From NCBI GenBank assembly GCA_000182565.2, contig KQ257458.1: a DNA stretch of 33,044 nucleotides; one strand, 5' to 3'. The position numbers were made by a program, and so were the translations under genes. Position 1 is the stretch's first letter, and each line of letters begins with the position of its first letter. This DNA is from Spizellomyces punctatus DAOM BR117 (taxonomy: Eukaryota). Below, one piece after another: positions 11,828 to 32,681 of the stretch. The notes below the pieces were generated by a model. It ran no database searches and was not told the DNA's origin. It saw nothing but the letters and a program-made list of their open reading frames with translations.

Positions 11828-12172
11828 ACTACAAAGTGAGGCACTTTGAGACAATTTCATCAAAAATATTCCCAGGAAGAAAGTGCCACAGGATAAAACC
11901 AATGGTAAAAATTGGAAGCTTATGGAAAGTAAAAAATTATGTAGAGACATGTAGGGATGAGAAATGTCCCCATTTTCCTAGCAAGATTGCAAAAAGAATA
12001 GAAATATCCACATGTTTAAATGGCAACATTGGTTTCCTTGTTTACACAAAAATCCACAGAAGATGTAGGCAACTCAGGCGTCAGAACTCATCCCATCTCA
12101 ACATTACCTTCGAGGCATACCATGCTCTGGAAACATTCTCTTCCCTACATCCCTGACGGCATCTTCCGCCGC
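11828..12172 (+). repeat. Left terminal inverted repeat (345 bp)
   Basis: Reverse complement of 32337-32681. One mismatch seen (12080 vs 32429, in a CpG). Confidence 0.95.
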
Positions 12173-12428
12173 TTTTGATGCTACTTTTTTTACATGTAGC
12201 CCTGGGATTTCGTTTTCTTTCTTCATGCATGCCGGCACGGCGAGCGGCGAAAGCGGTAGATATGTACTGTTGACAATCATGATGAACAATAGCATGATTT
12301 CGACCATGCGAATAGTTTTTTAGTTTATCCAAACATTCATAGCAGGAATACACAGCGCATTTCAGACATATGCAGAGTTGATATTCTTTAAAGCCTGTAC
12401 AAGTATCGCAACGCATCGAAACGCGCAT
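12081..12428 (-). CDS. Small Cys/His-rich putative zinc-finger protein
   Basis: CDTC, CLKC, CYEC and HHDC motifs. AT-rich leader before the ATG. The C-terminus runs into the TIR. Confidence 0.5.
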   Translation of the reverse strand: MRVSMRCDTCTGFKEYQLCICLKCAVYSCYECLDKLKNYSHGRNHAIVHHDCQQYISTAFAARRAGMHEERKRNPRATCKKSSIKSGGRCRQGCREENVSRAWYASKVMLRWDEF

Positions 12429-12466
12429 TTTTATTATAATGAGTGGAAGATTATTCAGCGTGCGTT

Positions 12467-12862
12467 TTAAGTACCTTTAGAAGCAATATTCTTCAACTGA
12501 GCATATTCTTTCCCCACATTCATAATGTGGTCATCCATGTCCAATAGAGTTTCCTGATGCTGCAATATGCATTTGCAGATCGCCCTTTTATCTAGCGTAG
12601 GATCCTTGATGACAGGCATTAGGGTTTTCAGGTTTATGGTGATAAGATGCTTTCGATTTCTGAAAAATGCTATAGACGAATAATTTATGAAGCCATTATG
12701 GTTTGTATCAGATAATGTAGGGTCTTGAAATGACAGCGAGAATTGCTTCGTTTGTAGAATATCAGAGAAGTCTTTGATCATGTTTTTGAATGATCCTTGA
12801 TGTAGGTCATCAAACATGGTTATAAAGTCGTCTTTGGTAGACCGTACAGATATGAAATGCAT
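12467..12862 (-). CDS. Hypothetical viral protein (131 aa)
   Basis: ATG-initiated ORF tightly packed and co-oriented with its neighbours. No motif recognised. Confidence 0.5.
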   Translation of the reverse strand: MHFISVRSTKDDFITMFDDLHQGSFKNMIKDFSDILQTKQFSLSFQDPTLSDTNHNGFINYSSIAFFRNRKHLITINLKTLMPVIKDPTLDKRAICKCILQHQETLLDMDDHIMNVGKEYAQLKNIASKGT

Positions 12863-12863
12863 T

Positions 12864-13172
12864 CTATTTGACTCTCATCTCTAAAAAAAACAGCCGTTCG
12901 TTTCTCGAATGACCCAACAATACAAAATTGTTGAGAATAGCGAGATAACCACTACGCTTGAAGCATAATTGGTCGAGTTTCTTCAAGTGGACGATGGAGA
13001 GAATCTCTTGAAAGATATGTTCATTTTCAGGTGTTTGGGGTAAATAGAGAATTACCCTGCTCTTGTCCCCTCTTAACATACTTTCACAAAATTTCCAAAA
13101 TTTATCCATGTCATCCTTTACAGCATCTCTTATATTGAAAACTGAATGACTTTCAATATCCGCGCGTCGCAT
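12864..13172 (-). CDS. Hypothetical viral protein (102 aa)
   Basis: ATG ORF starting 49 nt after the fibre stop. Its stop is 1 nt before the next ATG. Confidence 0.5.
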   Translation of the reverse strand: MRRADIESHSVFNIRDAVKDDMDKFWKFCESMLRGDKSRVILYLPQTPENEHIFQEILSIVHLKKLDQLCFKRSGYLAILNNFVLLGHSRNERLFFLEMRVK

Positions 13173-13221
13173 TCTTATCTTGCATAGCTTCTTTTTTAAA
13201 TGATGGCAGTGCGCGCGTCAT

Positions 13222-16200
13222 CTATTGTCCGAGTTCAGTGATTTTAATGAGGGAAACATCAGTTGTGTTATCGGGAGCAGCCTGACTGATACTAAAATTT
13301 GTGAAGTAAGCAACGTTATCGGCCATCCCTGTAACAATGAATGATGCTGTGATTGTATGATTGACCCCGGAATTAAAGTTAAAGTCGCTCGAGTACACGA
13401 GAGGCATCGACCCAGCGCTTTGGCCGAGAAATATTGACAATGTACCATTTGAGTTTGCTGTGCCATGGAGGTTGACCGTCCACTCCATAAGTACTTTACC
13501 TGGTGTTGAAACATAGAAGACCTTCGAGGCATTGTTGGATTGCCACACGTCTTTAGTCAAAAGTTTGAACACTTGAACATTTCTTAGAAATGTTTGACTG
13601 GAAACCCATGGTTGAGTAGCACAAACCTGACCATTGCTATAGACAGCACCGTTCGAATACAGATTCTCTCCTGCAACAACATGTGCACCAATAGCAACAC
13701 CTCCATTCACCACCAACGCACCTGTTGTACTCGATAAAGCCGGAGTGGTACTTTCAATGATGACATTTCCTGTCGACGATGCAATAGTAATACCCTTCGC
13801 TCCCTGCGCTTGCAATCGCACCGCACCTGCATTGTTCCTGATTGTGAAGGTGTTCACGCCTCCATCCACAGTCCTATTGTTCCCATTCAAAAACATAACA
13901 GCACTCCCTGCGGCATTCTGGAAGTATTGGATTGCGCAACTATTGCTTCCAGGATCAAGGTTTTTAAGAATAATAGCCCGTAACCTGTTAAGTGGCGAAC
14001 CAATAGTTAGATTACCGGACGAGATGAGGTCTCCGGTGTAGGTGTTAACTGAGAATCGGCTATTCCATGTTCCAAAGGTATCACTGGAATAATGACCGAA
14101 TTCATAACGACGTTGGTCTATGCTATCAGACGAGCCGGCGAGGTGAACATGAAGGGCGTCTCCGGAATTGTTATAGCCGATAGTATAATCACCTTTCGTT
14201 GCAGGAGTATCACTTCTCAACTTGAAATATCCACCTGTAGAGGCGGCTATGAGAACTTTTCCTGTAATGTTTCCACCTGAGAAGATACTTTTAGAAACCC
14301 CTATTCCTCCTTTTACCTGTAGAGCCCCACTTGATACGGTTGTTGCCTCGGATGTATCATTAGCAAGAATTGTATTTACCGACAGATTGCTGGTAGGTGT
14401 GAGTAAATCTTGTTTCGATGTTTGCAGTGCTGATATGCTGGGGGCATAGTCAACAATGTTTAAAATACTTCGCACAGCGACGTCATTTGTGAGAGTGAAT
14501 CCTTGGACATCATCTCCCATGAGAAACATATTGCTCATTGGTGACATCGCAGCGAGAGTAGAGAGTAAGGGTGATGCATTTTGCTTCACTGAGAGATCGA
14601 CATTTGTAATGCCTAATAATGTCTTCACCTCTTCAGGAGTTTTCACCGCGAATGTCGTTGCAGAACTCCCTAAAATGAAAGAATTTGCAGATAGTGTGAC
14701 TCCACTAATGGAATCTAGGAGCAGACTCGATGTCTGTTTTGAAGCAATGGCTGCCCCTACATAACTCTCGGTTGCAACTTTCAGATTATTGGAGTACAGA
14801 CTCCCTCCACAGTAGAGATTCTTCGATATTCCAACACCTCCCTTTACTTGGAACGCACCTGTGATTGATGATGAAGCATCTGTGCTTGTATTTACAATGA
14901 CATTCCCAGATGAGAGAATATCTAGTTGAGATGAACTATTTGTTACACCGAATCTCAGGTTCGTATTCCACGCCCTCAGGCAGACGTCGTTAATCTGATC
15001 GTTGAAGAAGGCTTGGCCATTCGAAGATGGGGAGAAGAATGTCATGTCACCAGTATTGACATTTCCACCTATGCTACCCCATCCAAAACCATACCCTGTT
15101 CCTTTCCCACTTGTTACCTTATTACCAACCCACAGAGTCTTCGATATTCCTACACCTCCTAATACCTGTAAAGCCCCTGTTGTTGCAGACGAGGAGTCTG
15201 TAGCAGTCAACACCTTAACTTCGTTTGAAATAGAAACAATCCGCAGACCTAATCCTAGACCAGATTTCCCTTGGATGTTCATGTCTCCACAATCGTTATG
15301 AAGAGTAGCGTTATTTGACGAGCCATCAGCAGTCCTTGTAGAAGAGTTGAGAAAAAGTAAGGCTGCATTTCCGCTATCATTGGAACAACCAATAGCAGTG
15401 TATGCGTTTACGCCAGATGAAATGTTTCTAGATTGCACCCAGTTTGGAGCATCCACAGAGGTGCTACCAATTACATTTCCTCCAGCATACAAGTCCTTGG
15501 CAACACCTAAACCACCACTTACTAGAAGTGCTCCTGTAGTCGAACTAGTCGATTGTGAGGTATTTGTTATCTGTGTAATACCGGTATTAGAAATCTTGAA
15601 CACATAGCCAATGTTGTTATATGAAGAGTTGATTCCGAACCTGCCTGCTGGGTTAGAGCCATCGGCGGTTGAACCTGCAACTCGAATACCCCAAGTCACG
15701 TTTGATGAAGTATTTACCAGTGACATAAAGGTGGGATTGGCGCCATTTTGAACACTCAAATAACCATTTGCAGTAACAGAAGCAAGACTCAGATTTGTTG
15801 ATGTTGTGATACTGGGTTGTTTCCCAGAAAGAAGTGTGTTCACGCTAGCATTTGTAGCAATATCGAGGATGCCTTTCACTTGACTGGAAGTAACATTCTC
15901 GAATGTAGTCCCAGCAGAAGAATAAAGCCAACTGTCTGGCTGCACCATCATCGTGTACAGGCTATTAGTTGTAGCGTTCATAGGCTGCTTCGAGGCGAGT
16001 GCAGAAGTGAGGGAATTGTTGTTATTAGTTACCGTCGTTGTCAATGAAGACAAGGATTGACTTATTGGAGCAGTGTTATCAATTACAAATTTTTGAGAAG
16101 CAACTTCGAGACCTCCGATGTAAGCCATTCCACCGATATACGCATCAGTTGATACTCCTAGGCCTCCACTCACGACCGTATTACCTGATGGGTCAATTCA

Positions 16201-19200
16201 GAATATGTATCCTTTATCTTGGTATGACGAGTAAAAGCCTAATGCTCCAGAAATTAGGTTTCCATTCGATGAACCAGCCACATGGATATTCCATGTCTGT
16301 GCAGCGCTAGAATTTCCTAGTGTGATTGCCGTAGCATTGGTGTTTGAATTCTGTACCGTTAGACCGCTAAGGTTAAGGACACTCGCTGGTGTAATCAACG
16401 GCTGATATGCGCTGAGGATTTCATCTTTAGGTACAATCCGGAAAAAACCACCATTTCCACCCATCAAAAAAGTGCCATCAGTCGGGGTCAGACTACTGAT
16501 ATTGTCGAGCAAAGGAGATAAGTTTTGCTTCGATGCTAATCCAGTCATAACGAATGTTTCCGTTGCTACTTTCATATTGGTGGAGGCATAGATATTACCA
16601 CCAATGAATATGTCCTTTGCAATACCGACACCACCAGGACAAACTAGGGCACCCGTTGTTGAAGATGTTGATACTGTTGTGCTATCCAGTGTAACAATTC
16701 CAGTGTTTGCCTGTATTGTTAGTCCTCTAGCGGTCTGTGCTTGGAGCCGAAGATTTCCAATATCGTTTCTCAATGTCATTGTGTTTTGCCCTCCATCGAC
16801 ACTCCGGTTGTTTCCGTTCAAAAACATCACTCCAGACCCTCCTGAGGCCGTAAGACAAAGAATACTACATGCGTTTCCTCCTGTATTAGTATTGCTCAAA
16901 ACGAGATAACGTAAACTGTTTACAGAAGAGGCTCCAACTGTTAGGTCGCCCCCTACAGCACATGAACCATTTGTGTCCACTCTTAGACCTAGAGTAGGCG
17001 TGCTAGATGTCCTAGGATATATGAACATGGGTAAATCCTGAGCACCGAGCCATGTTGAAGCACCGGGGTTGTATCCTAAGAATCCTGTTCCATCGAGCCC
17101 GAACCATGAACTCTTAGTTCCATCGAATGTTGAATATGTCGTGACCGATGAAGTGCCTGTCATAGATGGAGAAATATTCAATCTGGTTCCACTGATTACT
17201 TTACCACCGATATTACCACTGAATGTCACATTATTCGAAGTTAATGCCGTTATCTGGCTTCCAACCCAAGGTTTGATGACTTCGGTATCATAATCCCTTA
17301 GCATAGAGAGGTTAATTGCTTGCTGAGGGTATTCGTATTTGATGCCTCAATAACATGAAGGCGTATCAAACAAGAGACGAGTACAACCTCCTATGGGATC
17401 AGAAGCAATTGTGACATTGCTCCCGGGTTCAAGTGGTGGCATGAAGGTAACAGGGTCTATTGGTTCATAAACGGGGTTTCCATCGCCATCGAGTATAGGT
17501 TGGCCTTCCGCATCTCGTTGAACCTTACGTTTGCATGACCCTCCGAAAATCATTCCCCAAGGGAACGTTGAGACGATTGGGAGGATGGAGTTTACAGCCA
17601 TAGGGACTGTCAAGGGTGGGGAGACCATCGCTGGAAAAGGTACGGTTGATAATGGAGTTGCTCCGGACAAAATAACAGTGTTGCCTGATGGAACATCCAT
17701 TTTTAACACTTCTGCGGTATCACTCTGTTCAGTATTATCGGTATCCCTTTGCTTTGATAATGGCATAGGGTCAATGAGGGTAAAGTTATAAAGTGGATAC
17801 GAACCTGTAATGATGAGATTTGGACTGTTACTTACGAATTGAGGAGGAATCATGTTATACTGAATCATATTTCCAACAACAATAATACTTCCATATGAGT
17901 TGGTACTGCCCACATAATTACCTCTTAAGGTATCGCCTACGCGAAGAATAGTATCGCTTCCTGAAATCGAACATGAAATCAAATCACCGCTAACTTGCAC
18001 TCCATTGATACCTCTTAGGTTTGTTGACAAAATCGCACCATTTTTTTGCAGTCCAATTCCCGCAGCGATGTTTGAACTCAGAACACCATTGTTTAGAGTA
18101 AGATCGGGTGACTGTGCTGTTAAACTCAGTCTGAAGTCGTTCCCCGTCCTGGTTACCCCTTGGGAGGCTGTGAAGGTATCCCGTATGGTTCCCCTGTTGA
18201 CCATAGCCAAACCTGAATTAGCATCAACTTTTAGATCGAGTTGAAGGTCATTCTGTACTCTCTCAATACCATTGCTGCAAGTCAGTACATCTTTAATGGT
18301 ATCTGCTTTGACCATTTGGAGACAACTGCCAGCCTCGCATTTAAGAGATAATACCACATCATTGGTCGTTCCAGGTCGAATAGATACGCCATTAAAGTCC
18401 TGAAAAATGTACCCACCTGTGAGTGCATTTCCAACAATTCTGATGGTCTGATTATCGACCAAACAGCCTATCTCTCGACGTCCGTTAAACTCGGGTCCCA
18501 CTGCAAGCACTCCTGTTTGAGAGCCTTGATAAAATTGGGAAAGATAGTCTTTACTCACTGCATATGAGCCACCTCCAATAGCAGGAAATACTCCAGTTAA
18601 TTTGACATTTGGTACACACAACTCCTGAAGCGTGGACGAATAAGTGAATGAAGAACTTCCCGAGTAGCCATAAGTAAGGTTCCCATACAGGATTTGTTCA
18701 TAGCCAGGTGATCGTAATGAAAGTTTCGATCCCGCTTGACTGAATGTAGAAGAATCGACCATTAAGCGAATTGCTGTGGTGTCTACTTCTCCTAACACAT
18801 CAGTCATTTCGGTCAAACTATTGAATCCAAAGTCGAGCCATGAAGACCCGATGTCTAACAGCATATCCGCACCTGAACTCGATTTCAGAGCGCCAAATGC
18901 TTTTAGTACCGACTGAATGTTAGTTTCCAATTCGTCATTATTGTTCACCTTTAGACTTTTATGAAGTTTGATTCCAAGGCCGCTCTGGTCACGATACAAC
19001 GGCTTTTTCAGCATCTCAGGATCAGGAAAATTAACCGATAGACCGTTTTCAGTTATAAGCAAAGTATCATCTGCTTGTAAACCAACCGTATGTGATTCGG
19101 CATCCCTGTAGAGTGGAAAATCATAGTTATAAGGTATGACTGTTAATTTTCCACCCCCAACTTTTAGTTCATCATCATCAATGTTTAGGCTTACTGTTCG

Positions 19201-19554
19201 TGAGTTGGGAGCCCTATAGAGAGGTTGCAGGAGTGTCTCTGGTTTAACAGATAAGCCGTCTTCTGTTATAAGCAGAGTATCGTCTGTTACAAGCCTGACA
19301 TCATGTTCATCATTAATTAATGGAAAAACATAAGTTGTCTCGGCAAGAGAGATGGTATATTTACCTTTATTTTTCTGAATGGAGAGACTGGGCGTTTGAC
19401 TATCCAAATCGAGTATAGTGACTATACCATCTTTATTTCGTAGGCTCTCTCCATAGATAGAATTGGCTTTAACTTTTCCGGACTTGAAATTATCTAGGAC
19501 TTCTAAATTTCTTCGAACCGTATATGTGCCTTGAATGCTATTAGGCAAAGGCAT
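13222..19554 (-). pseudogene. Giant fibre/spike-like virion protein (~2110 aa) broken by two in-frame TGA (17347-17349, 16198-16200)
   Basis: The 735, 368 and 983 aa ORFs share one frame, separated only by single TGA codons. Contains beta-spiral-like repeats (PLYR..L.L..D.L.I..GLSV), six TGALxVxGGxG repeats and three FLN..R..DG..N..TLRN modules. Rich in S/T/G/N. Confidence 0.8.
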
Positions 19555-19612
19555 CTTCTTATTCCTTTATATCATCATAGCTTAGAAAATGAATTGCATG
19601 CCGACATTTGGT

Positions 19613-20464
19613 CTATACAATCTCATCAAAGACGGGATATGGCTCTGCGCCGGGATCCCTGCCGGGATAGGCCACTCCGTGCCCGGCATGCCTGCCGGGA
19701 TATGGCTCTGCGCCGGGATCCCTGCCGGGATTGGCCACTCCGTGCCCGGCATGCCTGCCGGGATATGGCTCTGCGCCGGGATCCCTGCCGGGATTGGCCA
19801 CTCCATGCCCGGCATACTCATGTCCATTTTTAAAACGGACTACATCTGCGCGAGTGGGATGAACAGGGCGAGTTCTCTTTCTCTTGATGACTTTAAGAAC
19901 CTCATAATCATCATCATCTGAAGAATCATCTGACGATTCCTCAACTACAATCTGCCGTCTTTTTTTCGGTATTGGCATTTTAATTCACTTCGCTTTAGTC
20001 TTGTGACTTTGTAAGTCCTTCATATAGTTGCGGAGCCTAGCCTCGACACATTTTTCCTGTTCCACTCTAAGGGCTTCGGCCTTAGCAAGAATCCGTTCAT
20101 CCTCTTTTCTCTTCTTTTCTAGTTCTCTCTCTTCTTTTCTCTTGGCGGCAAGTTCTCGTCTAACCTGAAGAGCCTTTTCTTGGCTTTTTTCTAAATGTGC
20201 TCGCTGCTTCTCTGATGCAGTATGTTTTTTGGGAGCGCTGGTATTGACCTCTCCGGGATTGGCCGCTCCGCGCCCGGCATGCCTGCCGGCATTTGGCTCT
20301 GCGCCGGCATATTTGTTTACAAGTTCTTGAACATAGTCTTGATGATCATCGTCATTAGTTTCATCATCATCATTCAAACTTTGTTCTTCATCTGTAATGT
20401 CCTGGTCAGGTATGCCTGCCGGCATTTGGCTCTGCGCCGGCATAGATTCCTTTTTTTTAGGCAT
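19613..20464 (-). pseudogene. Charged coiled-coil viral protein (~283 aa) with one in-frame TGA at 19985-19987
   Basis: The MPKKKES ORF continues in frame (AAG TGA ATT AAA ATG) into the 121-aa ORF. Contains an acidic tract, a SEKQRAHLEK coiled coil, a KKRRQIVVEESSDD segment and a 21-aa repeat. Confidence 0.65.
19633..19815. repeat. GC-rich 63-bp tandem repeat x2.9
   Basis: Units start at 19633, 19696 and 19759. Related dispersed copies occur elsewhere in the element. Confidence 0.95.
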
Positions 20465-20504
20465 TTTAGCTTTGTAAATAGAAAATAAAAAAACCCAAAT
20501 ATGC

Positions 20505-21482
20505 TTAGCGAGGTTCTTTTGTCCATGATGATGGTACCTTATAAGAATTACTCGCCCACTCTTTCTTAAGTTCCTTGTGTACCTTACCATTTTTTCTAAT
20601 CCAATTACCGGTTCTTGGATTGTAAACTTCCTGCAAGGATGAATCTCTCGGGTTTCTTCTCTCATGAAGCCTTGGCGATGGCTGCATTGTTGTGAAGTCA
20701 AATGCAGTTGATGATGGAGATGGTGATGCATCCATCGGCGTTAGTGATGGTAAGCCTGAGGTTGGTGATTCAGATCGCCTATGTAGAACTAATTGTGTAG
20801 GTGGCATGCCTCCTTCCTCATAAAAGATGTTCTCAGACAAAGCAGGAGTAGGTCGTATCACGCCACGTTGCATGTTGTATTCATCTCTTGAGGCAGAAAT
20901 GTCTGTGCCCCGCGTTCCTAAGCCAGTTGTTTCTAGCAAACTCTCCCCAGGATTGTGAATACCATGTGAAGAGTGGAAATGCTGTATGTCAGCCAATTCC
21001 TTACGTTTTTCCTCTTTTATAAACTCTTCATAACCTTCGTGCATTCGTCGGATGCATGCAATCAAATCTATGTCATTTTTGTATCCATCGCGACCATGGA
21101 TTATCGGATACCGAGTCTCTTGATTAGATTTGGGATGGTAATCAACTGAACGCCCAGAAGCCATCCGTTTGAGTTCTGCATCTGAAACAACTGGCCGAAA
21201 GGTATCAGGATCCAAAGACCGGCCGTTAGCATCCCTTAGTTCACCGAAGCATCTATTATCAATTTCGATATAGTATGGGTCACTGACAAATTGTGTATCT
21301 ACCTTACCAAATGAATGATACTTGTTTAACAATGGGTGCTTGAAATAGCCTGTAGGTAACTTTGAATCAACCCATTTTCTCTTCTCTCTCCAAAACACAT
21401 CACGTTCGACCTGCTCAGAGTTGTAATCAGTTACATCAGTGTTGCCCTTCTGTAATAGTTTTACCAATTCGGCAACAGACAT
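20505..21482 (-). CDS. Hypothetical viral protein (325 aa) with C-terminal NPxTG (2-cysteine-adaptor-like) motif
   Basis: Long intact ORF ending in EVYNPRTGNWIRKNGKVHKEL. Confidence 0.7.
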   Translation of the reverse strand: MSVAELVKLLQKGNTDVTDYNSEQVERDVFWREKRKWVDSKLPTGYFKHPLLNKYHSFGKVDTQFVSDPYYIEIDNRCFGELRDANGRSLDPDTFRPVVSDAELKRMASGRSVDYHPKSNQETRYPIIHGRDGYKNDIDLIACIRRMHEGYEEFIKEEKRKELADIQHFHSSHGIHNPGESLLETTGLGTRGTDISASRDEYNMQRGVIRPTPALSENIFYEEGGMPPTQLVLHRRSESPTSGLPSLTPMDASPSPSSTAFDFTTMQPSPRLHERRNPRDSSLQEVYNPRTGNWIRKNGKVHKELKKEWASNSYKVPSSWTKEPR

Positions 21483-21532
21483 ATTGTACTATTCTGTATT
21501 TTACTATATTAGTATTATTAAAAAAAAGAAGC

Positions 21533-22149: not shown

Positions 22150-22893
22150 TTAATCATCTGCAAAGCCGGAGGAATGACAATCGAGAACCAAAGTGAACCC
22201 TTTGCCCTGTAAATCAATCGGTAATAGCATTTCAGCATCAAGCAAACGGATGTTGATGGTACTAACAAGGCCTGACTCTGTGTCAATGAAGTTGGTATCG
22301 AAATAATTCTGCGCACACAGCACGGTGTCTATTTCCTGGCTTATTGGAATCGATGCTAGAATATTTAGATCATCGGCTCCAGCAACTATAACATCGCTAG
22401 AACATAAGTTTGTCGATGAGACGAGCACCATCTTAACACCTGTCAAATCGATTGGATTCGCGAAAGTTATTGATCTCCCAGGGTCAGATTGCTGCGTCTG
22501 AACTAATCCAAGCAGTTTGCTCGCTGTTGTTTGAGGGTAGAGAACTTTGAATGGTGTTGTACCCGCGGTCACTGTTATTTGACTGTTTATATGATTGTAT
22601 TCTACAGTGTATGCTTGCGTCCCAGTCGAGTTGAATCCAGCAGTCAGTGCATCCACTAAATCATCTGGAGAGTAAGTACCAGGAGGAATAGCAAAAGTCC
22701 TTGCAGCATTACCCATCCCAGCATCATAAAAGGAGACAATATTGTTCTTGTCATTTACTATGTTCCACGAAAGGGGCAAAATGATCGAATTGTATTGAAT
22801 TTTATCACATGCGATGGGTTTGGCTAGAGTCCATTTAGGTTCATTCTTGTTTCTGTTCGTCGCCCTGTTGCTATCGAGAATCAACTTTTTCAT
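22150..22893 (-). CDS. Minor capsid protein (penton, single jelly-roll), 247 aa
   Basis: Motifs LILDS, IPPGTY, KLLGL, ILASIPI and INIRLLD..PIDLQG..FTLVL are typical of PLV/virophage pentons. Adjacent to the ATPase and MCP. Confidence 0.8.
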   Translation of the reverse strand: MKKLILDSNRATNRNKNEPKWTLAKPIACDKIQYNSIILPLSWNIVNDKNNIVSFYDAGMGNAARTFAIPPGTYSPDDLVDALTAGFNSTGTQAYTVEYNHINSQITVTAGTTPFKVLYPQTTASKLLGLVQTQQSDPGRSITFANPIDLTGVKMVLVSSTNLCSSDVIVAGADDLNILASIPISQEIDTVLCAQNYFDTNFIDTESGLVSTINIRLLDAEMLLPIDLQGKGFTLVLDCHSSGFADD

Positions 22894-22940
22894 TTCTTCT
22901 AATGTATTATAGATACAGAGAGCAAATAAAAACAAGTGCA

Positions 22941-23612: not shown

Positions 23613-23646
23613 CGACTTTTTTTTTTCTAGATGTGTAAAGTAAACC

Positions 23647-25050
23647 ATGTCATCCGATATTGAAGTAACAGAGGTCAGACGTGTCCCATCGGCATTTACT
23701 TATAAAAGATCCGCAAAAAATGGAGTCATTCTAAACTTCCAGCCATCTAGTCAGGTTCGCTTCGAGCCAACAAACGGAAGTGGAGATTGCCGACCAGGCG
23801 GGAAACTAGTTTTTAAAATAGCAGACGACAAGCGCTTCTGGCTCGTTAATGAAACGCTGCACAAATATCGTGTAGTCGGCTTAAAAGCAGATGGTTTGCC
23901 AGCAGTAGCAGTTAATGCTGACTACAGGCTCTGTCAATCTGGAACTGATGCTGTATGGAAACGTCAATCTCTCCTGATTAATGGAAGGATCATTGAAGAT
24001 CTCAATGACTATAATTTGTTCACTGTGCATGAAAATGCCTTAACATCATGGGAAACCAAACAACATCTAGGCCAATGCGAGTATTATTCAAGTGAGGATA
24101 ACAACCGTTCAGCAGTGGTCGCTCAAAACAACGCATACACCGTTACCGGGTCATTGCTATCATTCTTTCAAAATGAAGTGGCTTTTCCTCTCTGTCTTGT
24201 GAAAGGAGGAGTAAGCCTGGAGATGACCGCCGAGACAGACCTTTCCAAAATATTCCCAAAATCCACAGGGATTACGTCCTTCAAAGTAGAACAAAACAAA
24301 TTAATATGTCAGTTTGCTGAACCGGTCAAGGCTTACTATGATAAAGTGCTTGCTTTGATGCAGGCTGAGGATCCTACACCCCTGACTATCCCCACTCAAA
24401 TAGTATGGAGTCAAGAATTTGCAGGACAAGATAGTTGAGTACAACAACTCTCGCTTGTAACAGGTGAGCAGTCCTCTGTTTCGTCATTGATGTTGGTGAC
24501 AACTGACAATGTTCTAACAGATGTAGACAAACTGAATTATTCGGACGATGCAGGTATTAGAACAGTGTCTATGCAAGTAGGAATGGAACGGTTCCCACAA
24601 GGGAAGGCTATTGGACATGGCTCTGAGAAAACAGGATTTGTCTCTACTATTGACCCTGAGATGTATGCATTGAGTCAACGTAACAAGGATTTCAATGATG
24701 TGAAGTTTGCGCCCACTATGTCTGATTTGAAAGGATGGGATCTAGGAGGCAAAAAGATAAAACATTGGTCATGGAGACAAAATTTCAAGCAAACCCCAGA
24801 CATGATTGGCAGCGGTCTTCAGACTCTAGCCGATGGACGAATTTTAATCAATGTTTCTCAATATCCAAATCCTCCAGAAACAGCCGATTTCCCAAGCGAA
24901 ACTATAACTACAGGAACCGGAGATTCACAAACGACATCGCCTAACCCCGCTTACATTCCTACATTCAAGAACAAGATGTTTCATGTATTTTGGACTACTG
25001 ATCATGTGATGAGCATCGACAAAGATGGTATTAGATTGGTTCCGGCATAG
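23647..25050 (+). pseudogene. Major capsid protein (double jelly-roll, PLV-like), ~467 aa with one in-frame TGA at 24436-24438
   Basis: The 263 and 187 aa ORFs share one frame. Motifs F.P.NG..PG..L.F.I, L.INGRIIEDL.DYN, FPL....GG..LE, V...RFP and GSGL. Lies just downstream of the ATPase. Confidence 0.8.
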
Positions 25051-25109
25051 TAATGCGAACAATTATATTCTTCACATATGTATAGGACTACCTAATATTG
25101 AATCACATT

Positions 25110-25283
25110 ATGGCTAAGAAATCCCATAGAAAACTCGTCAACATATCGGCTATGCCAAATAAAGGACTTAGAGCGGCTGCTCGTGCAAGAAACAGGCACA
25201 TCATTGCTGCTAGAAAAGCCGCAGCAACACGTAAGCGACGCTACGGTTCTGGAAGAGTCGTGAGGCGTGTTGTTTATGTTTAA
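25110..25283 (+). CDS. Small Arg/Ala/Lys-rich basic protein, putative DNA-condensing core protein (57 aa)
   Basis: MAKKSHRK...RAAARARNRHIIAARKAAATRKRRYGSGRVVRRVVYV, with no acidic residues. Directly follows the MCP. Confidence 0.65.
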   Translation: MAKKSHRKLVNISAMPNKGLRAAARARNRHIIAARKAAATRKRRYGSGRVVRRVVYV

Positions 25284-25448
25284 AAAAACGGCGCCAAGAA
25301 ATGCCAAGACTATGCCGGGCGCAGCGGCCTATCCCGGCAGGGGATGCCAAGATTCTTTCCATTGAATGGAAGGGCATCCCTGAGTACAAGCCGGTGGCAT
25401 AAAAAGGCACTCGGTGTATCTTTTCTCCCATTAGCACAAGTACGGGTT

Positions 25449-25592
25449 TGAAATATCAGGTATGATTCGAAACATTTAACCGAATCTGAAACATCCGATA
25501 CGTGTTCTGAAACACACGCCATAATTCTGAAACATCTAACCGAATCTGAAACATAGCTACATTTTCTGAAACACCTAACCGAATTTGAAACA
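25449..25592 (+). repeat. Iteron-like array of 8 x (T/C)GAAA(C/T)A at 19-21 bp period
   Basis: GAAAYA at 25450, 25469, 25488, 25509, 25529, 25548, 25568 and 25587. TAACCGAATYTGAAACA occurs three times. Confidence 0.85.
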
Positions 25593-26191
25593 TGTCCATG
25601 TCAAAGAGTCAATGGGGGCAAGCGACTAGCTATGTCGGAGGCTTGCTACATCCCCTAGCGCGTCGTGCTATCAAGACTGAACTAGAGGATCTCACCTTCG
25701 AGCAAAGCGAGTGTTTATTAGAAAATATAACTGATAATAAGAAAAGGGTTAAGAAAGACAAGGGGTTGCTAAGATCACTTAAAGGTCATCTGGGACGACT
25801 CCTAGAGCGGAAGGAGCGAGAAGAGGATAAATGGAAATCTTCATCTCTCAAGTTAAAGAGAAAGTTCAAAGATTTCGAGTCTGATGGTGAAACCTTGAGT
25901 TCTGGTTCTGACGATGATTCCGATGATGCCGATGACAGCGATTACAGTCCACAAAAGGCTAAACGCAGATGTGTCAAGCGGTCAAGCCCTGAGCATGATG
26001 GGGAACCCGCTAATTTAGAGCCATCGCTCATGGAGCGTCTCGAGCGGCAACAGATGCAGATTAACGCACTCCTAGCAGCTAGCACTCCTAAGCGCAGAAA
26101 GAGCGTCAAGGCTAAAGTGAGCGATCAGGACATTGTCCATGCTGATGTTATCAATCCTCCAGATGTAGGAAGCAGTAGCGCCGCTGCTTGA
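25592..26191 (+). CDS. Hypothetical charged protein with acidic tract and NLS-like motifs (199 aa)
   Basis: Intact ORF with KRKFK, PKRRK, a D-rich tract and a short coiled coil. Confidence 0.65.
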   Translation: MSMSKSQWGQATSYVGGLLHPLARRAIKTELEDLTFEQSECLLENITDNKKRVKKDKGLLRSLKGHLGRLLERKEREEDKWKSSSLKLKRKFKDFESDGETLSSGSDDDSDDADDSDYSPQKAKRRCVKRSSPEHDGEPANLEPSLMERLERQQMQINALLAASTPKRRKSVKAKVSDQDIVHADVINPPDVGSSSAAA

Positions 26192-26448
26192 TTCTCTTCA
26201 ATTACCGTTGACACACGCTAAAAAATCCATGAAATCAACAAAAAAATTACAAAACAACAAAACCAGAAAAAAAATACAAAACGACAAAAACAGTCTGTAA
26301 AGGTGTTTCGTAGCACAATGTACATAGATATCCCTTTGTTTAGCGTCATGTAGGGGCGTTGTTATAGAGCTTTTGTACAACGTTTGCTAATAAACACACA
26401 CGTTTAAACAAAGAGAAATAATATTTTGTATACACAATATATTTTAAC

Positions 26449-26760
26449 ATGGGACGCAAATCAGGATCGATAAACACGAAGGATCGCTACAGGGTATACA
26501 AGATCGAAGAAGATGGTTCTAGAACATTTGTAAATGACTATCGGGCAGCCATAGAGATTGCTAACAGGTTAGGTGTCTCGCGCTCGTACATTCATAATAT
26601 AATACATGGGTTAGCAGAATCGCCTATTTCAAAGATGTATGCTATAGAAAAGTTACCATGTATACGAAAACCACCACCTCGTCCTAAGCGGAGATGCTTT
26701 AAAATAAATCGAAAAGTGGCTATTCCTGATGATCCAGTAAAAGTTGCTCACTTCGCATGA
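26449..26760 (+). CDS. Small helix-turn-helix (NUMOD1-like) DNA-binding protein
   Basis: DYRAAIEIANRLGVSRSYIHNII fits an HTH pattern. Basic termini. Confidence 0.7.
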   Translation: MGRKSGSINTKDRYRVYKIEEDGSRTFVNDYRAAIEIANRLGVSRSYIHNIIHGLAESPISKMYAIEKLPCIRKPPPRPKRRCFKINRKVAIPDDPVKVAHFA

Positions 26761-27062
26761 ACATCCCTGCCGGGATTGGCCGCTCCGCGCCCGGCATCAT
26801 TTGAAGAACAAATACGTTTAAAGCTTTGAAAATATTTATTTTTTAACACTATATATTTCTATTTACTATGCCTTTGATTTTTAACCCAATCACCAACAGA
26901 CACGTAAAAGAAGACTCGAAGCCTTTTGAGAGGATGATGCGAAAGATTGTATCTGGAAACTTCTCTAGTGAAAACTGGACTAAGAAACAACTAGATGCAC
27001 TAGAGAACCTTCAAATACATCGAGTACCAAGATTCCTACAATCTGAGCGAGAAAAAAGAATT

Positions 27063-27382
27063 GCTGCTGCGAGACGCACTGAGGCTCAAAAGCAGGCTAT
27101 TGCTGAAAAGGCCAGAGAGACGAGAAGGCTTAATAAAGAAGCAGAAGAGCGCGAGATGAGAGAAATTCAAGAGAGGGCTCAGGCTGCTATTAAAAAGCGA
27201 AAGGAAGCCACTAAGAAGGCTGCTGCGAGACGCACTGAGGCTCAAAAGCAGGCTATTGCTGAAAAGGCCAGAGAGACGAGAAGGCTTAATAAAGAAGCAA
27301 AAGAGCGTCAGATGAGAGAAATTCAAGAGAGGGCTGAGGCTGCTATTAAAAAGCGAAAGGAAGCCGCTAAGAAGGCTGCTGC
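27063..27382 (+). repeat. 156-bp (52-aa) tandem duplication in the pPolB N-terminus
   Basis: Near-identical units start at 27063 and 27219. Confidence 0.95.
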
Positions 27383-29682
27383 CACTAGGGCTAAACGTAA
27401 GTATAATCTTCGAAAGCATCAAGAATCATTCTCACCTTTAATATCTGTCAAAGAGATCAAAATCAAAGGTATCGGTTATACAAAGGAACTTTATCGGTTC
27501 AATCCAAAGTACACCTTCGCTACTCATGATGATATTGTTTCATTTTTCAATGATGTCATCAAGGAATCACTTGTAGGCCTTGAACGCGGTGACAAAGTGC
27601 AAATAGGGTTTCAACATCAAAGTCTACACAATGGATTTTGGTCATCAAAAGTTGTATCAGTTAGTGATCTGATTGCTTCTGATGTGATAGACGATATTAC
27701 TGCGAGAATGCAATCGGCTGAAATAGCATCAATCGATGAAAGCATGACTATCGAGGTGCGTCGTTTAGTTTCGGTAAAGGGCGGCGCCTTCAAAAACTAT
27801 CATGACCATCTATCAGCACAGTCAAAAAGATGTGTCATTGTTGTGAAAAACAATGGTAACGATTGTGGTATGAGAGCAGTTGCCTTATCCGTAGCATTCC
27901 ATACAATGGATCACTCAACAAATGAATATGCGTACATCATGAAACAAAGAAAGCCACTGGACAAAATTGTTACTAACTATTATGAAGGATGCGGGTTACC
28001 TGTTGGTCAGAAGATGTCTTACGGCGATTTTCCAAAGTTGGTTTCATTCCTCAAAAGGAACATCATTATTGTTGATCTAGAGAACGGTGGTAAACCTCTC
28101 ATGGTCAAAGGTGTTAACAATGAGTGATACGATGAGAAACCTGCTACTATCCTACGTAAAGGGGATCATTTCGATTGCATAACCAAGATTAACGCCTTTT
28201 ACTGTGCATTGTATTTTTGTTTCCAATGCATGAAAGGACACAAGCATACCAATCATAAATGTGATAAGAAACGAGGATGCAACCTTTGTGGTTGGGTCAC
28301 ATGTAAACAAGGATCTCCCGATGATCTAGTGTTGTGTTTAAGTTGTAACTTAGGTCACTTTTCAGGAGATTGTGATGATTATCACAAGGAGAAAAAATGT
28401 GATAAAATATGGAAATGTAACAAGGAAGGCGGCTGCGGGCGTGTATTTGAGCGTGCTTATTATGATGGTAATTGTGCTGAGTTACACGATTGCAACCACC
28501 ATCTCTGCCGTCCTTGCAAGGCTTATGTCACTCCTGACCATCGATGCTTCATACAGAAAAAGAAACCCAGAAAGCACATTAGCAAGATCATAGCATTTGA
28601 TTTTGAATCAGAGTTTCTACATGATGGTGAACATCGTGTAAAGTTTACGGATTGCAAGGTAGTTTGTACCGGTCTATGCCAATCTGTGTGCCAATGTCAT
28701 GAGCATCACTCCTTCTTTGAATTTGACGCTTTTTATCAATTCATCTTCAAGAACCCTAATACAACATTCATTGCTCACAATGGTAAGGGTTACGATTTCC
28801 ACTTTCTCTTCAAAAAGTTCAATGACAACGGTGTTAAGCCTAAGTATATCTCAAATGGGTTGAAGATCATTTCAATGGTGCTGCCCAAGTTCAACATCCG
28901 GTTCATTGATAGCATGTTGTTTTTGCCTATGGGACTGTCAAAGTTGCCTTCCATGTTTGGATTAGAGGAACATGTTCGTAAGGGTTACTTTCCACATTGG
29001 TTCAAATGTTCAAATGATTATAAAGGCGTTTTACCATCTTTGGATGATTTCCGATTTGACAGTATGCCCTATGATAAACGCGCTGATGCACAACGCTGGT
29101 ACAAGAAAACCCTACGCAAATGCATGAAGGGTAGGTATGTTTTTGATTACACTAAGGAACTTGTTGAATACTGCAAGAATGATGTCGATATTCTAGCAGC
29201 GGCCGTGAAATTGTTCCGAGAGCAATTCCTTGTAGCAACCGATGGTGAAATTGATCCTTGGGCTTATAAAACCATAGCATCGGCATGTATGGGGACTTAC
29301 AGGCATATGTTCATGCCTGAAGAAAGCATACCCACACATCATGAAGAAGGAATGCGGCGTCATTCAGACAAGGCTGTCCAGTGGCTCGAATATCTACGCG
29401 ATAATGGCATTCTGGATATGCGACGTGTTCTACGTGGTGGAGAGAAATGGATTGACCGATTAAATGGGAAAAAATTCTATGCCGATGGCTATTCTCCTTC
29501 GACAAATACTGTGTATGAATTTAATGGTTGTGAATTCCATGGGTGTAAACAATGCAAAGACGATGATGCCGTTAATTATCATGGTGTCCCTTATAAGTCT
29601 TTGAGACGATATACCGATAATAAGCATGAAGAATTGATTGCTCTAGGTTACAATTATGTCTCGATCTCAGAGTGTGAATATG

Positions 29683-29782
29683 NNNNNNNNNNNNNNNNNN
29701 NNNNNNNNNNNNNNNNNNNNNNNNNNNNNNNNNNNNNNNNNNNNNNNNNNNNNNNNNNNNNNNNNNNNNNNNNNNNNNNNNN
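29683..29782. other. Assembly gap (100 N)
   Basis: Run of Ns inside pPolB. Confidence 0.99.
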
Positions 29783-31263
29783 AAACAAGAAGATATGTGA
29801 TTATGTTATGAGTAAAGACCTCGACATTGAATATATCCGACCTCTAGATCCTCGTAACGCATTTTTTGGTGGTAGAACAAATGCCAGCAAACTTTACTAC
29901 AAATGTTCTGAGAAGGAAAGAGTGAAATACTGCGATTTTACATCACAGTATCCTTGGGTAAATGCTTTTGGAGAGTACCCATGCTACTCGTTCCCCACAA
30001 GGATTCTTAACAACTTTGATGGCCAACTGAACTACAATGGTTTCATCAAGTGTCGAATAGTACCCCCTCGTGGGTTATATCACCCTGTACTTCCTGATAA
30101 GATTAACAACAAGACCATGTTTGTTCTTTGTAAGAATTGTGCTGAAAAAGGTATCTCTGTTTGTCGCCACTCTGTTGAACAGAGGGCTTTTGTTGGGACT
30201 TGGTGCATTCCAGAAGTGAAGTTAGTGCTTTCAAAGGGCTATGTCATTTCTCAAGTTTATGAGGTTCTTCATTTCGAAAATACGGGATCTGATCTTTTCA
30301 AAGATTACATCTTCACATTTCTCAAAATCAAGCAGGAAGCATCAGGGTACCCTAAATGGTGTAAAAATGATGACGACAGAAAAAAGTATATTGACGACTA
30401 CAAAAGCAAGCAAGGTATTCGTCTTGATCCAGCCAAAATTGTCTACAATGAAGGATTACGTCTCGTGGCTAAGTTGATGCTCAATTCATTGTGGGGTAAA
30501 TTCGGTCAAAAGAACAACATGCGTAAGCATATCACGATCAATGCTGAGGAAAATCCTGATGAATACTACTCCATCATGTTCAATGCTAAATATATCGTAC
30601 ATGACATAGTTGATTATGATAATGGTCGCACTTTGGATCTGTCATACTCCTTGCATAAGGCTGCTGTTCGTGATGACAAGAATACTAGTATTTTCATTGC
30701 TGCATACACTACCGCTTTGGCTCATTGTAAACTTTACAGTGTTCTGGATACTGTAGGGGAAAAGGTGTTGTACTATGATACTGATTCTATTATATATGTT
30801 GATGATGATATAGGATCAACTGAAAAGACTTTGCCCTATGGTAATTATCTTGGAGACCTGACAGATGAATTGAAAGGCGACCATATTGTAGAATTTGTTT
30901 CAGGTGGCGCTAAGAATTACTCTTACATTCTCAACAAAACAGGGAGAGCAAAGACGGTCTGTAAAGGCTTCACACTTTCATATGAAAATGGACTCAATCT
31001 TGGACATGAGTCTATGAAGGATATAGTATTTAACCCTAGGTACATTGATGATGAAGGGATTGAGAAAGAGAGTTGTGTTAATTTTAACTTTAGCGAAATC
31101 AACATTAGTAAAACACACAGTGTGCGTAACAAGACAAAGATCATCATACCAGAAAAAAATAACTTACCCAGCAAAAAGTACAAGTTTGTCTACAACAAAC
31201 GTGTGGTTCAAGAATTTAACTCTGAGTCTAAGGTCATAGAGACACTTCCTTTCGGTTTTTAAA

Positions 31264-32364
31264 ATGGGGACAAAAACCGAACTAATCAAGAAAGTTTACT
31301 ATGATCCCAAGACTGGACTTCAGAGCGTAGAAAAGCTCTACCAGAGACTCAAGGATCAGGGTATTTCCAGAAAGGATATAAAGACATTCATCGACAGTCA
31401 GCATGTGCAACAAGTACACAAACCTCTTGTCAAGCCTAACTACATGCATATAACAGCCAATGGTGTTGATCACATATGGCAATCGGATTTGTGCGACATG
31501 CAGAAATATGCTACCTACAACAACGGTTACCATTATCTGTTATGTATTGTAGACATGTACTCTCGTTATGCCTTTGTTTTTCCTCTCAAGAATAAAACCA
31601 GAGAAAAGATTGCTGATTGTTTTACAAAGTTACTCGCTAGGCGGCGTCCTAAAAATATCACGACTGATAGGGGTTCAGAGTACAACAACATTGTTTTTGA
31701 GCAATTGCTCTATAAGTATGGTATAAACCATTACATGGCTGAAGTTGCTGACCATAACCATATGGGTCTGGTCGAAAGGTTTAATTGTACACTGAAAAGT
31801 GTTATCTCCAGATACATGACCATATTTAAAACTAAGCGCTACATAGATGCTCTTCCTGACCTTGTTATGAACTACAATACTTCATATCACAGTCTATTGA
31901 AAAAGGCACCTGTCAATGTTGCTGATGGTGATTATGTGCGCGATAATAGCAAGGCTGTAAGTGATTTCAAGAAGTTTGACATTGGCGACCATGTAAGAAT
32001 ATTACTCAAATGGGATATTTTCAAAAAAGGATATGAGGCAAAATGGTCTGATGAAGTATACCATATAGTCAATGTCGATGGCTATCGATTCATAGTAGCA
32101 TACGCCAATGGTAAAGAAATAGACCAGTGTTTCAAATACTATGAATTACAGAAAACCAATGCACCGATTACCGAGAAACCAGGTCATCGACCAGTAAAAT
32201 TGACTAGAACACAAAAAGAAGTTCGCAAAGAAATTCGTCAGTTGGAGCCTGTACAAACACGACCTACTAAAACCAGATTGCAACAGAAAAAGTTAAAAGT
32301 TCATCTGAAGGGTACATTTTCACACATAGAAATTCCGCGGCGGAAGATGCCGTCAGGGATGTAG
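31264..32364 (+). CDS. int: Polinton-type retroviral-like (rve, DDE) integrase, 366 aa, no chromodomain
   Basis: YYDP..G N-terminus; catalytic WQSDL, TTDRGSEY, VERFN; YN..YHS; F.IGD.VRI..F.KGY..KWS. Confidence 0.93.
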   Translation: MGTKTELIKKVYYDPKTGLQSVEKLYQRLKDQGISRKDIKTFIDSQHVQQVHKPLVKPNYMHITANGVDHIWQSDLCDMQKYATYNNGYHYLLCIVDMYSRYAFVFPLKNKTREKIADCFTKLLARRRPKNITTDRGSEYNNIVFEQLLYKYGINHYMAEVADHNHMGLVERFNCTLKSVISRYMTIFKTKRYIDALPDLVMNYNTSYHSLLKKAPVNVADGDYVRDNSKAVSDFKKFDIGDHVRILLKWDIFKKGYEAKWSDEVYHIVNVDGYRFIVAYANGKEIDQCFKYYELQKTNAPITEKPGHRPVKLTRTQKEVRKEIRQLEPVQTRPTKTRLQQKKLKVHLKGTFSHIEIPRRKMPSGM

Positions 32365-32681
32365 GGAAGAGAATGTTTCCAGAGCATGGTATGCCTCGAA
32401 GGTAATGTTGAGATGGGATGAGTTCTGATGCCTGAGTTGCCTACATCTTCTGTGGATTTTTGTGTAAACAAGGAAACCAATGTTGCCATTTAAACATGTG
32501 GATATTTCTATTCTTTTTGCAATCTTGCTAGGAAAATGGGGACATTTCTCATCCCTACATGTCTCTACATAATTTTTTACTTTCCATAAGCTTCCAATTT
32601 TTACCATTGGTTTTATCCTGTGGCACTTTCTTCCTGGGAATATTTTTGATGAAATTGTCTCAAAGTGCCTCACTTTGTAGT
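32337..32681 (-). repeat. Right terminal inverted repeat (345 bp)
   Basis: Reverse complement of 11828-12172. Confidence 0.95.

Follow-up and report, generated by a model that had tools for sequence, protein, structure and literature searches.

What kind of element occupies positions 11828–32681 of a 33,044-nucleotide stretch of contig KQ257458.1 (assembly GCA_000182565.2) of Spizellomyces punctatus DAOM BR117, hereinafter the window, and what has become of it there? An initial annotation described it as a complete and recently active endogenous polintovirus with an adenovirus-like virion kit in an apparently fungal genome, which combined a Polinton replication and integration module with a capsid of the Polinton-like virus (PLV) type and might represent an undescribed lineage. 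The analysis presented here leads us to conclude that the element is very probably the integrated genome (provirus) of a PLV of the chytrid S. punctatus, of which this particular copy has been silenced and eroded by deamination at CpG sites. The observations behind this reading concern the identities of the genes, the folds of their products, the boundaries, the host, the presence of several copies and the existence of other insertion sites.

Boundaries, insertion site and host

The element is 20,854 bp long and is enclosed by perfect 345-nt terminal inverted repeats (TIRs), which form the one long inverted repeat of the window, and by a 6-bp target-site duplication (TSD). The TIRs and TSD read from the sequence at the outset are thus borne out to the base (Table 1). 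Six base pairs is the typical length of a Polinton TSD. For the integrated elements of Bellas & Sommaruga a range of 5–7 bp has been given (PMC7805220).

The ends are independently backed by public reads carrying the same species label. One read contig tracks the left flank as far as 11826, where it passes into sequence near-identical to the right flank of the window, with ACCGCA present once and a single mismatch. It is an uninterrupted paralogue of the Ty3/Gypsy retrotransposon into which the element inserted, i.e., an empty paralogous site. Two further read contigs with different, unrelated flanks stop exactly at 11828, and these are other insertions sharing the same terminus.

The open reading frame (ORF) of the major capsid protein (MCP) is 100% identical to the gene model SPPG_05487 over the matched stretches, and the fibre ORF is 100% identical to SPPG_05485 over 100% of its length. 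As both are gene models of S. punctatus DAOM BR117, located on a contig of 1,037,365 bp, the host is a chytrid fungus, in line with the fungal genome suspected earlier. The element displays several features by which Polintons/Mavericks in the broad sense are recognized, namely a protein-primed family-B DNA polymerase (pPolB), an rve integrase, long TIRs with a 6-bp TSD, and a double-jelly-roll (DJR) MCP together with a single-jelly-roll penton and an A32 ATPase.

Its lineage is, however, probably not an undescribed one as had been surmised: Bellas & Sommaruga (2021, Microbiome, PMC7805220) reported one integrated PLV in S. punctatus and defined on its MCP an ‘S. punctatus group’, which they count among five PLV groups that rest on MCP genes of a lake metagenome. 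This placement also supports the assignment of the capsid to the PLV type rather than to that of animal Polintons. The same authors argued that PLV-type capsids are met with in company of a Polinton-like gene configuration (pPolB plus RVE), which is the mosaic that the initial annotation offered as possibly new.

Replication and integration genes

Nineteen ORFs of the element were scanned against Pfam, and three of them scored above the curated cut-offs. These are pPolB, the integrase and the ATPase, precisely the three enzymes initially recognized from the letters. Comparison with relatives indicates that the ORF map understates the length of the polymerase. The 419-aa ORF (26868–28127) shares one frame with the polymerase ORF, and the joined product aligns end to end with the 1,362-aa metagenome protein P0049 (57% identical), consistent with a single gene of about 1,430 codons, as in the relatives. 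The frame contains a 100-N scaffold gap (29683–29782), which a read contig from the dataset X2 spans with four letters, keeping the frame.

A search with the polymerase returned 185 homologues at E ≤ 0.001. Those from the related chytrids Powellomyces hirtus and Geranomyces variabilis are 63% identical. Past the chytrids and one ENA contig, the nearest named matches are animal-genome proteins, 33–38% identical over up to 100% of the length and taking in the N-terminal Cys/His and zinc-rich regions; these are presumably Maverick/Polinton polymerases. Together with the rve domain, the TIRs and the TSD, these matches agree with the proposal of an integrating dsDNA element with a replication and integration module of the Polinton type. 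The C-terminal part of the polymerase found no relative in IMG/VR.

In the alignment of 26 sequences, the N-terminal region of the polymerase shows an invariant cysteine (C333) and an invariant histidine (H434), followed by a zinc-rich stretch. A profile search of PDB with the 26 homologues recovered the phi29 polymerase (E 5.9e-6) and no peptidase. We considered the 419-aa ORF as a separate gene, but it turned out to be the N-terminus of the polymerase; taken alone it had no noteworthy sequence match in PDB, and the protein Atlas gave only unnamed, mostly nematode clusters (scores 0.91–0.94). The idea that this N-terminus is an OTU peptidase found no support: none of the 26 homologues matches an OTU model in Pfam at E ≤ 1, the PDB profile search is devoid of peptidases, and the likeness to OTU is one of motif only. 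A literature passage retrieved on OTU-like domains and polintons concerned Helitrons. Nor was any other protease family detected by Pfam in the 26 homologues.

As side observations, the zinc-rich and ‘YEFNGCEFHGC’ regions (28230–29681) show weak profile matches to a BRE1-type RING finger (E 0.006) and to Vsr-type mismatch endonucleases (E 0.02), and one polymerase homologue carries the source name very-short-patch repair endonuclease. Further, owing to a tandem duplication of 156 nt at 27063–27382 (2.1 copies, 96% matches), a coiled-coil-like segment is present twice in the N-terminal region of the polymerase.

Capsid genes

The MCP matches no Pfam or PHROG family. However, its AlphaFold model, built on an alignment of 36 sequences (mean predicted local distance difference test, pLDDT, 77.3; predicted TM-score 0.80), shows the jelly rolls expected of it: the top Foldseek match is Vp54 of PBCV-1 (E 8.8e-16, TM 0.57–0.61), followed by the double jelly rolls of iridovirus, Sputnik, mavirus, faustovirus and poxvirus D13. 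At E ≤ 0.001 the PDB search gave 228 matches, the listed chains all being capsid or scaffold proteins of DNA viruses. The named matches in BFVD are mostly giant-virus capsid proteins. Relatives in P. hirtus and G. variabilis are 63–72% identical, and beyond the chytrids the search returned only metagenome proteins of about 400–470 aa, 23–30% identical. As a single-protein query against IMG/VR the MCP found no relative, and its alignment offered no stretch conserved enough to serve as a query there.

The candidate penton protein, which the initial annotation had also named, adjoins purely viral clusters in the protein Atlas (score 0.98). Its low-confidence model structurally resembles a capsid chain of EhV-201 (Z 12.4) and one of PBCV-1 (Z 11.4), with lower matches to the mavirus penton 6g41 (Z 6.5), the aviadenovirus chain 8roq_M (Z 5.9) and a Sputnik chain (Z 5.9). 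A paralogue in the same genome, SPPG_09548, is 95% identical and lies on another contig, which it shares with the fibre paralogue SPPG_08557; relatives in P. hirtus and G. variabilis are 55–62% identical. As modelled, both capsid and penton are closer to giant-virus proteins than to those of adenoviruses. The element thus joins replication and integration genes of the Polinton type to a giant-virus-like capsid.

The giant fibre gene

Three successive minus-strand ORFs of 735, 368 and 968 aa share one fibre frame of 2,111 codons that only two stops interrupt. The fibre gene is therefore larger than the ORF map suggests, and sister fibre genes in the same genome run uninterrupted through both stop sites. 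The fibre ORFs have no Pfam family, and the 968-aa and 735-aa parts found no meaningful match among PDB sequences, with no adenovirus fibre at E ≤ 1. Their repeat motif ‘SSTTGAL.V.GG.GI.K.L’ matches phrog_697, ‘structural protein’ (E 4.1e-6), and 4 of 62 fibre homologues contain PF13884, which we take to be an intramolecular chaperone of phage tail spikes.

Predictions of three copies of the last 227 aa support a trimeric C-terminus. The interface score is 0.86 as against 0.00 for the best control. Among proteins of solved structure, 21 of 30 pairs attained this mark and none of 23 single chains did. Between runs at least 86% of contacts coincide, pLDDT is at least 83, and the contacts fall mostly in residues 2–107 of the 227. 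A giant fibre, as first proposed, is thus well founded in the frame and in the predicted trimer.

S. punctatus codes for four fibre paralogues, SPPG_02563 (73% identical), SPPG_03315 (52%), SPPG_08557 (84%) and SPPG_05632 (80%), the last on the contig of the window itself; the five fibre copies, including that of the window, span four contigs. Another relative is found in Fimicolochytrium jonesii.

Decay and silence of the window copy

The element is not complete in the sense first supposed, as in-frame TGA stops interrupt the fibre (twice), the charged repeat protein, the MCP and pPolB. All five internal stops are TGA, and the eight large genes terminate in TAA or TAG. The same frames retain 43 CGA codons, and none of their 198 CAA/CAG and none of their 50 TGG codons has turned into a stop. 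If C-to-T and G-to-A changes were spread evenly over the one-step precursor sites of a stop (48 + 198 + 100), the chance of all five stops falling on CGA would be about (48/346)^5, roughly 5e-5. In the DNA run X16 (ChIP-DNA reads), the base at 24436 is C in eight of eight reads, restoring CGA at the MCP stop.

The wider differences between the window and these reads show the same bias. In a sample of 40 out of 346 variant places, 13 of the 22 transitions listed inside the element fall on CpG/TpG/CpA sites (background about 25%), and at 12 of these 13 it is the window that has the decayed TpG or CpA state. The CpG observed/expected ratio is 0.77 in the element versus 0.99 in the dehydrogenase gene of the flank. 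The pol frame of the surrounding retrotransposon (6643–11799, minus strand) has four internal stops, at 10929, 10386, 9564 and 9228, and these too are all TGA, so that nine of nine internal stops in the two nested mobile elements of the window are of this kind.

In Spizellomyces, ‘5mC is confined to transposons’ (PMC12695648, 2025), 5mC being 5-methylcytosine. Deamination of methylated CpG after insertion, converting CGA to TGA, fits as the simplest reading of the stops. We picture the element inserting into the Ty3/Gypsy retrotransposon, after which 5mC would have covered the locus and its CpG sites would have been lost by deamination. This would have turned arginine CGA codons into the five stops in the capsid, polymerase, fibre (two) and charged protein. 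The copy in the window is dead.

The gene models SPPG_05485 and SPPG_05487 both skirt in-frame stops by way of predicted introns. A short intron across the MCP stop was considered and rejected: the in-frame GT..AG interval is only 30 nt, too short for a fungal intron, and the relatives read straight through it. On our reading of the ORF map, the intron of the flanking dehydrogenase gene is roughly 100 nt.

An assembly artefact would offer another account of these lesions, with near-identical copies having been collapsed or joined into a chimera; the perfect TIRs, or part of the stops, would then be no real property of a single locus. The 100-N gap within the element, the many sister copies with 346 variant places in the X16 reads, and the absence of the window's T at 24436 from all eight of those reads lend this some plausibility. 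Yet independent X1 and X2 contigs have the window's T at 24436, one X2 contig showing no difference at all over 24380–25217, and an X2 contig crosses the gap in frame. The left retrotransposon junction and the TSD are coherent, and the empty paralogous site agrees with them. We accordingly hold an artefact to be most improbable.

Equally improbable, in our estimation, is that the copy is functional and that its stops are regulatory, being read through or recoded by programmed readthrough or a helper-virus suppressor. The exclusive use of TGA inside genes that end in TAA or TAG is what such a system would lead one to expect, as are the perfect TIRs and TSD of a young, possibly competent insertion, and the adjacent retrotransposon repeats the pattern in all four of its stops. 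However, TGA exclusivity is accounted for by the CpG-biased changes that separate the window copy from its sisters, without need for recoding. At three of the five sites the sister copies or relatives have an ordinary Arg, His or Gln, and the X16 reads have CGA at the MCP site. No tRNA gene was found in the window. Four small ORFs themselves end in TGA, and reading it as sense extends them only into TGA-rich sequence. Moreover, the pPolB stop falls within one conserved domain, the N-terminal Cys/His domain, splitting its invariant Cys from its invariant His.

In the RNA sample examined the element is essentially silent: 49 reads fall on 20 kb, with a depth inside the element of at most 0.17 per bin, compared to 1.02 in a flank bin.

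Several points weigh against the reading of a provirus decayed by deamination. Perfect TIRs normally mark a very young insertion and are at odds with five nonsense mutations, a tension lessened but not gone because each TIR arm has only five CpG sites. The stop sites at 19987 and 28125 have no informative sister sequence, and at the latter the sole aligned relative, P0049, has I rather than R. The methylation of the locus is probable, being taken from the statement on 5mC at the level of the species, and the RNA sample comprises about 1,029 million letters, about 6% of one run. Confidence in the penton model is low (pLDDT 61). The virus status is known here from genes and models, and the sister gene models are spliced or truncated predictions. 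Finally, the element probably belongs to the S. punctatus group, its identity with the published copy being something we infer.

Copies and mobility of the family

The element family was mobile, because two extra insertion junctions are found in the reads and fibre paralogues lie on four contigs. Hence, the recent activity claimed for the element holds for its family, as the other insertion junctions attest, but not for the copy in the window.

Separately, four X16 reads and an X2 contig join position 12122, within the TIR, to 20253 with one extra G, which points to an internally deleted or rearranged sister copy without the fibre region. The MCP, penton and polymerase relatives in P. hirtus (P0003–P0005, P0040, P0044, P0047 and P0050) all lie on short contigs of about 10–16 kb, roughly the size of the element; these could be collapsed repeats or unintegrated genomes.

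The gene set allows the intact form to be outlined. It would be a linear dsDNA molecule that ends in inverted terminal repeats and encodes the protein-primed polymerase by which it is replicated. The A32-type ATPase would load it into an icosahedral shell made of DJR capsid trimers and, at the vertices, pentons. The fibre, very long and trimeric, would serve for attachment, plausibly to wall-less zoospores, and the rve integrase would insert the genome into a chromosome with a 6-bp target duplication.

It might be argued that the family now persists merely as a self-synthesizing transposon, its capsid and fibre genes being relics from which virions are never made. No particle is reported for a fungal Polinton or PLV in the available portions of PMC7805220 and 10.64898/2026.06.19.733378, the structural genes of the window copy are broken, and a polymerase and an integrase suffice for movement to other loci. 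Nevertheless, the structural proteins have been kept across three genera of Spizellomycetales (MCP 63–72%, penton 55–62% identical), and the 2,110-codon fibre frame has just two stops, each a single CGA-type change. The fibre paralogues diversify (52–84% identity), yet a high-confidence trimer is predicted for the C-terminus of the window's own. Furthermore, the S. punctatus group is among the five PLV groups from lake-metagenome MCP genes (PMC7805220). This makes a purely transposon-like existence very unlikely.

At the other extreme, sister copies in S. punctatus DAOM BR117 might be intact and inducible, yielding fibre-bearing icosahedral particles that infect wall-less zoospores, a prospect that we consider unlikely at present. 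Such induction might follow from loss of 5mC, or from infection with a chytrid giant virus, in which case the element might act as a virophage-type defence. If true, a fungus that can be cultured and genetically transformed would for the first time be seen to host a DNA virus that takes an extracellular route, and the 52–84%-identical fibre paralogues would be the record of an ongoing receptor arms race.

Other ORFs, repeats and upstream signals

Table 1. Coordinates of the features of the window, from the host flank to the right end of the element
Feature	Position	Strand	Basis or remark
Zinc-type alcohol dehydrogenase gene, with intron	600–2059		Host flank
Ty3/Gypsy chromodomain retrotransposon (insertion target)	6643–11827, resumes 32688–33044	-	rve, chromo and RNase H domains
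Left TSD copy, 6-bp ACCGCA	11822–11827		Sequence identity with right copy
Left TIR, 345 nt, begins 5'-AC	11828–12172		100% complementary to right arm
ORF, 115 aa, Cys/His-rich, pI 9.3	12081–12428	-	No Pfam match above cut-off
ORF, 131 aa	12467–12862	-	No family
ORF, 102 aa	12864–13172	-	No family above cut-off
Giant fibre, 2,111-codon frame, two in-frame TGA	13222–19554	-	Annotated in part as SPPG_05485
Fibre, second stop TGA	16198–16200	-	Sister copies: R, R or H
Fibre, first stop TGA	17347–17349	-	Sister copies: R or Q
Charged repeat protein, about 283 codons, pI 6.9, one TGA	19613–20464	-	No family
Charged protein, stop TGA	19985–19987	-	
ORF, 325 aa	20505–21482	-	PF08793 near C-terminus, E 0.0015, 19.2 bits, below cut-off 22
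ORF, 85 aa	21533–21790	+	AT-rich divergent intergenic region shared with 325-aa ORF
Penton (minor capsid) protein of 247 aa, frame uninterrupted	22150–22893	-	Atlas neighbours, structure model
A32/FtsK-type genome-packaging ATPase, 236 aa	22902–23612	+	PF04665, E 2.7e-6, 27.5 bits (cut-off 22.8)
MCP (double jelly roll)	23647–25050	+	Structure model, Foldseek; stop skirted by splicing in model SPPG_05487
MCP, stop TGA	Variant base 24436	+	P. hirtus and G. variabilis MCPs: R or H
ORF, 199 aa, charged	25592–26191	+	
ORF, 103 aa, pI 10.2, possible helix-turn-helix DNA-binding protein	26449–26760	+	HTH_3, E 0.0027, below cut-off
pPolB, one TGA, 100-N gap	26868–31262	+	PF03175, E 1.9e-43
pPolB, stop TGA	28125–28127	+	
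rve integrase, 366 aa	31264–32364	+	PF00665, E 5.4e-17, 62.4 bits
Right TIR, 345 nt	32337–32681		100% complementary to left arm
Right TSD copy, 6-bp ACCGCA	32682–32687		Sequence identity with left copy

Three further components of an adenovirus-type virion were sought among the remaining ORFs. The charged repeat protein is likely the ORF that had been called basic and core-like, but with 51 K+R versus 52 D+E and a pI of 6.9 the name does not fit it, and no strongly basic core protein was found. The amphipathic pVI-like ORF of the initial annotation could not be recognized, no small ORF scoring above a Pfam cut-off, and a pVI-like protein was not identified. No adenain-type or other protease family was detected at E ≤ 0.1 in the 19 ORFs by Pfam, although a divergent protease among the remaining ORFs is possible.

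A GC-rich 63-nt unit occurs in 2.9 tandem copies at 19633–19815 inside the gene of the charged protein; related 27-mers are found at 20282–20308 and 20415–20441, with an inverted copy at 25315–25341 in the spacer between the MCP and the 199-aa ORF. Outside the element, the stretch that separates the dehydrogenase gene from the retrotransposon contains an ORF of 315 aa (4945–5892, plus strand), which is rich in lysine at its N-terminus and matches no Pfam family.

The 2-cysteine adaptor domain (PF08793) seen below threshold in the 325-aa ORF is presumably typical of giant-virus proteins. It also appears below threshold (E 0.0069) in 1 of the 26 polymerase homologues, and the start of the window's polymerase (26868–26950) has a similar ‘NP.T...V’.

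The regions upstream of the element's genes are AT-rich. Of 14 genes, 9 have TCTA in the 60 nt upstream (mean of composition-matched shuffles 4.46, with 62 of 5000 reaching 9), and 4 have TTTCTA there, those of the fibre, charged protein, MCP and pPolB (14 of 5000 shuffles reach that); both motifs were chosen post hoc. They are only a lead for a shared promoter. We take TCTA to be the core of the CroV/mavirus late promoter, and a literature search for a mavirus ‘TCTA’ late promoter turned up nothing.

These signals bear on whether the family is virophage-like, remaining silent and replicating only upon infection by a giant virus (e.g., a member of the Mycodnaviridae, a family newly described from zoosporic fungi) through the transcription machinery of the latter, which would be compatible with the element being a provirus. 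The MCP and penton are closest to giant-virus proteins, the element is silent in the RNA run, and endogenous virophages and PLVs, according to PMC10945749, are ‘usually silent’, their inducers being giant viruses. The sub-threshold 2-cysteine-adaptor matches and the TCTA motif, weak and post hoc as it is, point the same way. On the other hand, the element has its own polymerase and integrase, as is thought of autonomous Polintons, and its silence is equally explained by methylation and the death of the copy. The promoter signal was picked after looking. Spizellomyces, Powellomyces and Geranomyces are absent from the main text of the Mycodnaviridae paper, and neither that paper nor Gong et al. 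2020 mentions S. punctatus or Polinton/Maverick elements in its phylum. On balance, we regard a dependence of this kind as doubtful but worth keeping in view beside the provirus reading.

Comparison with known systems

Animal Polintons/Mavericks (Polintoviricetes, including adintoviruses) share with the element the pPolB and rve genes, long TIRs with a 6-bp TSD, an A32 ATPase, a DJR MCP and a penton. The element differs from them in its fungal host, in having no adenain-type maturation protease detected in the 19 ORFs, and in its MCP, which falls in a PLV group (PMC7805220).

Mavirus and the endogenous mavirus-like elements of Cafeteria likewise integrate and code for pPolB, rve integrase, DJR MCP, penton and ATPase between TIRs; the mavirus MCP is among the matches of the element's MCP (6g44, E 3.3e-11), as its penton is among those of the penton (6g41). 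The endogenous mavirus-like elements are silent (PMC10945749), as is this one. In contrast to mavirus, the element's MCP and penton are fitted better by those of giant viruses, no cysteine maturation protease was detected, and the fibre gene is very large. To our knowledge, S. punctatus has no giant-virus partner.

Adenoviruses show the same generic virion plan of a DJR MCP, penton and trimeric fibre, and the same protein-primed replication from inverted terminal repeats. However, no hexon occurs among the PDB chains listed for the element's MCP, the nearest being the MCPs of PBCV-1 and iridoviruses. The aviadenovirus match of the penton is weak (Z 5.9), and the fibre parts match no adenovirus fibre. 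Adenain, a strongly basic core and pVI were not detected, and the element possesses an A32-type ATPase and an integrase. The complete kit of a hexon-type MCP, penton base, fibre, adenain, basic core and pVI was thus not found. What survives of the ‘adenovirus-like virion kit’ is its generic plan of MCP, penton, ATPase and fibre: the epithet is right only for the plan common to this virus kingdom, and the structural neighbours are those of giant viruses.

Among fungi, the Polintons of Glomeromycota (Glomus/Rhizophagus) are comparable as endogenous Polinton-type elements in a fungal genome (PMC7805220; 10.64898/2026.06.19.733378). According to PMC7805220, an MCP had not been found in G. intraradices, unlike the S. 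punctatus element with its recognizable full set of capsid genes. A32 ATPases are placed ‘in numerous Chytrid fungal genomes’ by the 2026 preprint, which also refers to the PLV of S. punctatus. The S. punctatus group matches the element in host species and in integration ‘into the middle of a large contig’, and the only S. punctatus MCP protein returned by our search was the window's own SPPG_05487, one element being reported in the species (PMC7805220). The central claim, that a fungal genome contains an integrating element which resembles a DNA virus and encodes a capsid, is therefore already published, and no new category is involved.

The TGA lesions, the 2,110-codon fibre, the further junctions and the fibre and penton paralogues on four contigs, and the N-terminal Cys/His domain of the polymerase are not mentioned in the available portions of PMC7805220 or the 2026 preprint, no dedicated literature search having been made for them. 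What is added here to the published picture comprises the exact ends with their TSD, a single polymerase gene of about 1,430 codons whose N-terminal Cys/His domain is conserved, and a fibre gene of 2,110 codons with a trimer-tested C-terminus. It further includes additional insertion junctions, diverged fibre paralogues on four contigs and a clean TGA mutational signature. S. punctatus can reportedly be cultured and transformed. The element is a handy marker of how this fungus silences and erodes invading DNA. Its family offers a workable system for asking whether particles are still formed by Polinton-like viruses of fungi.

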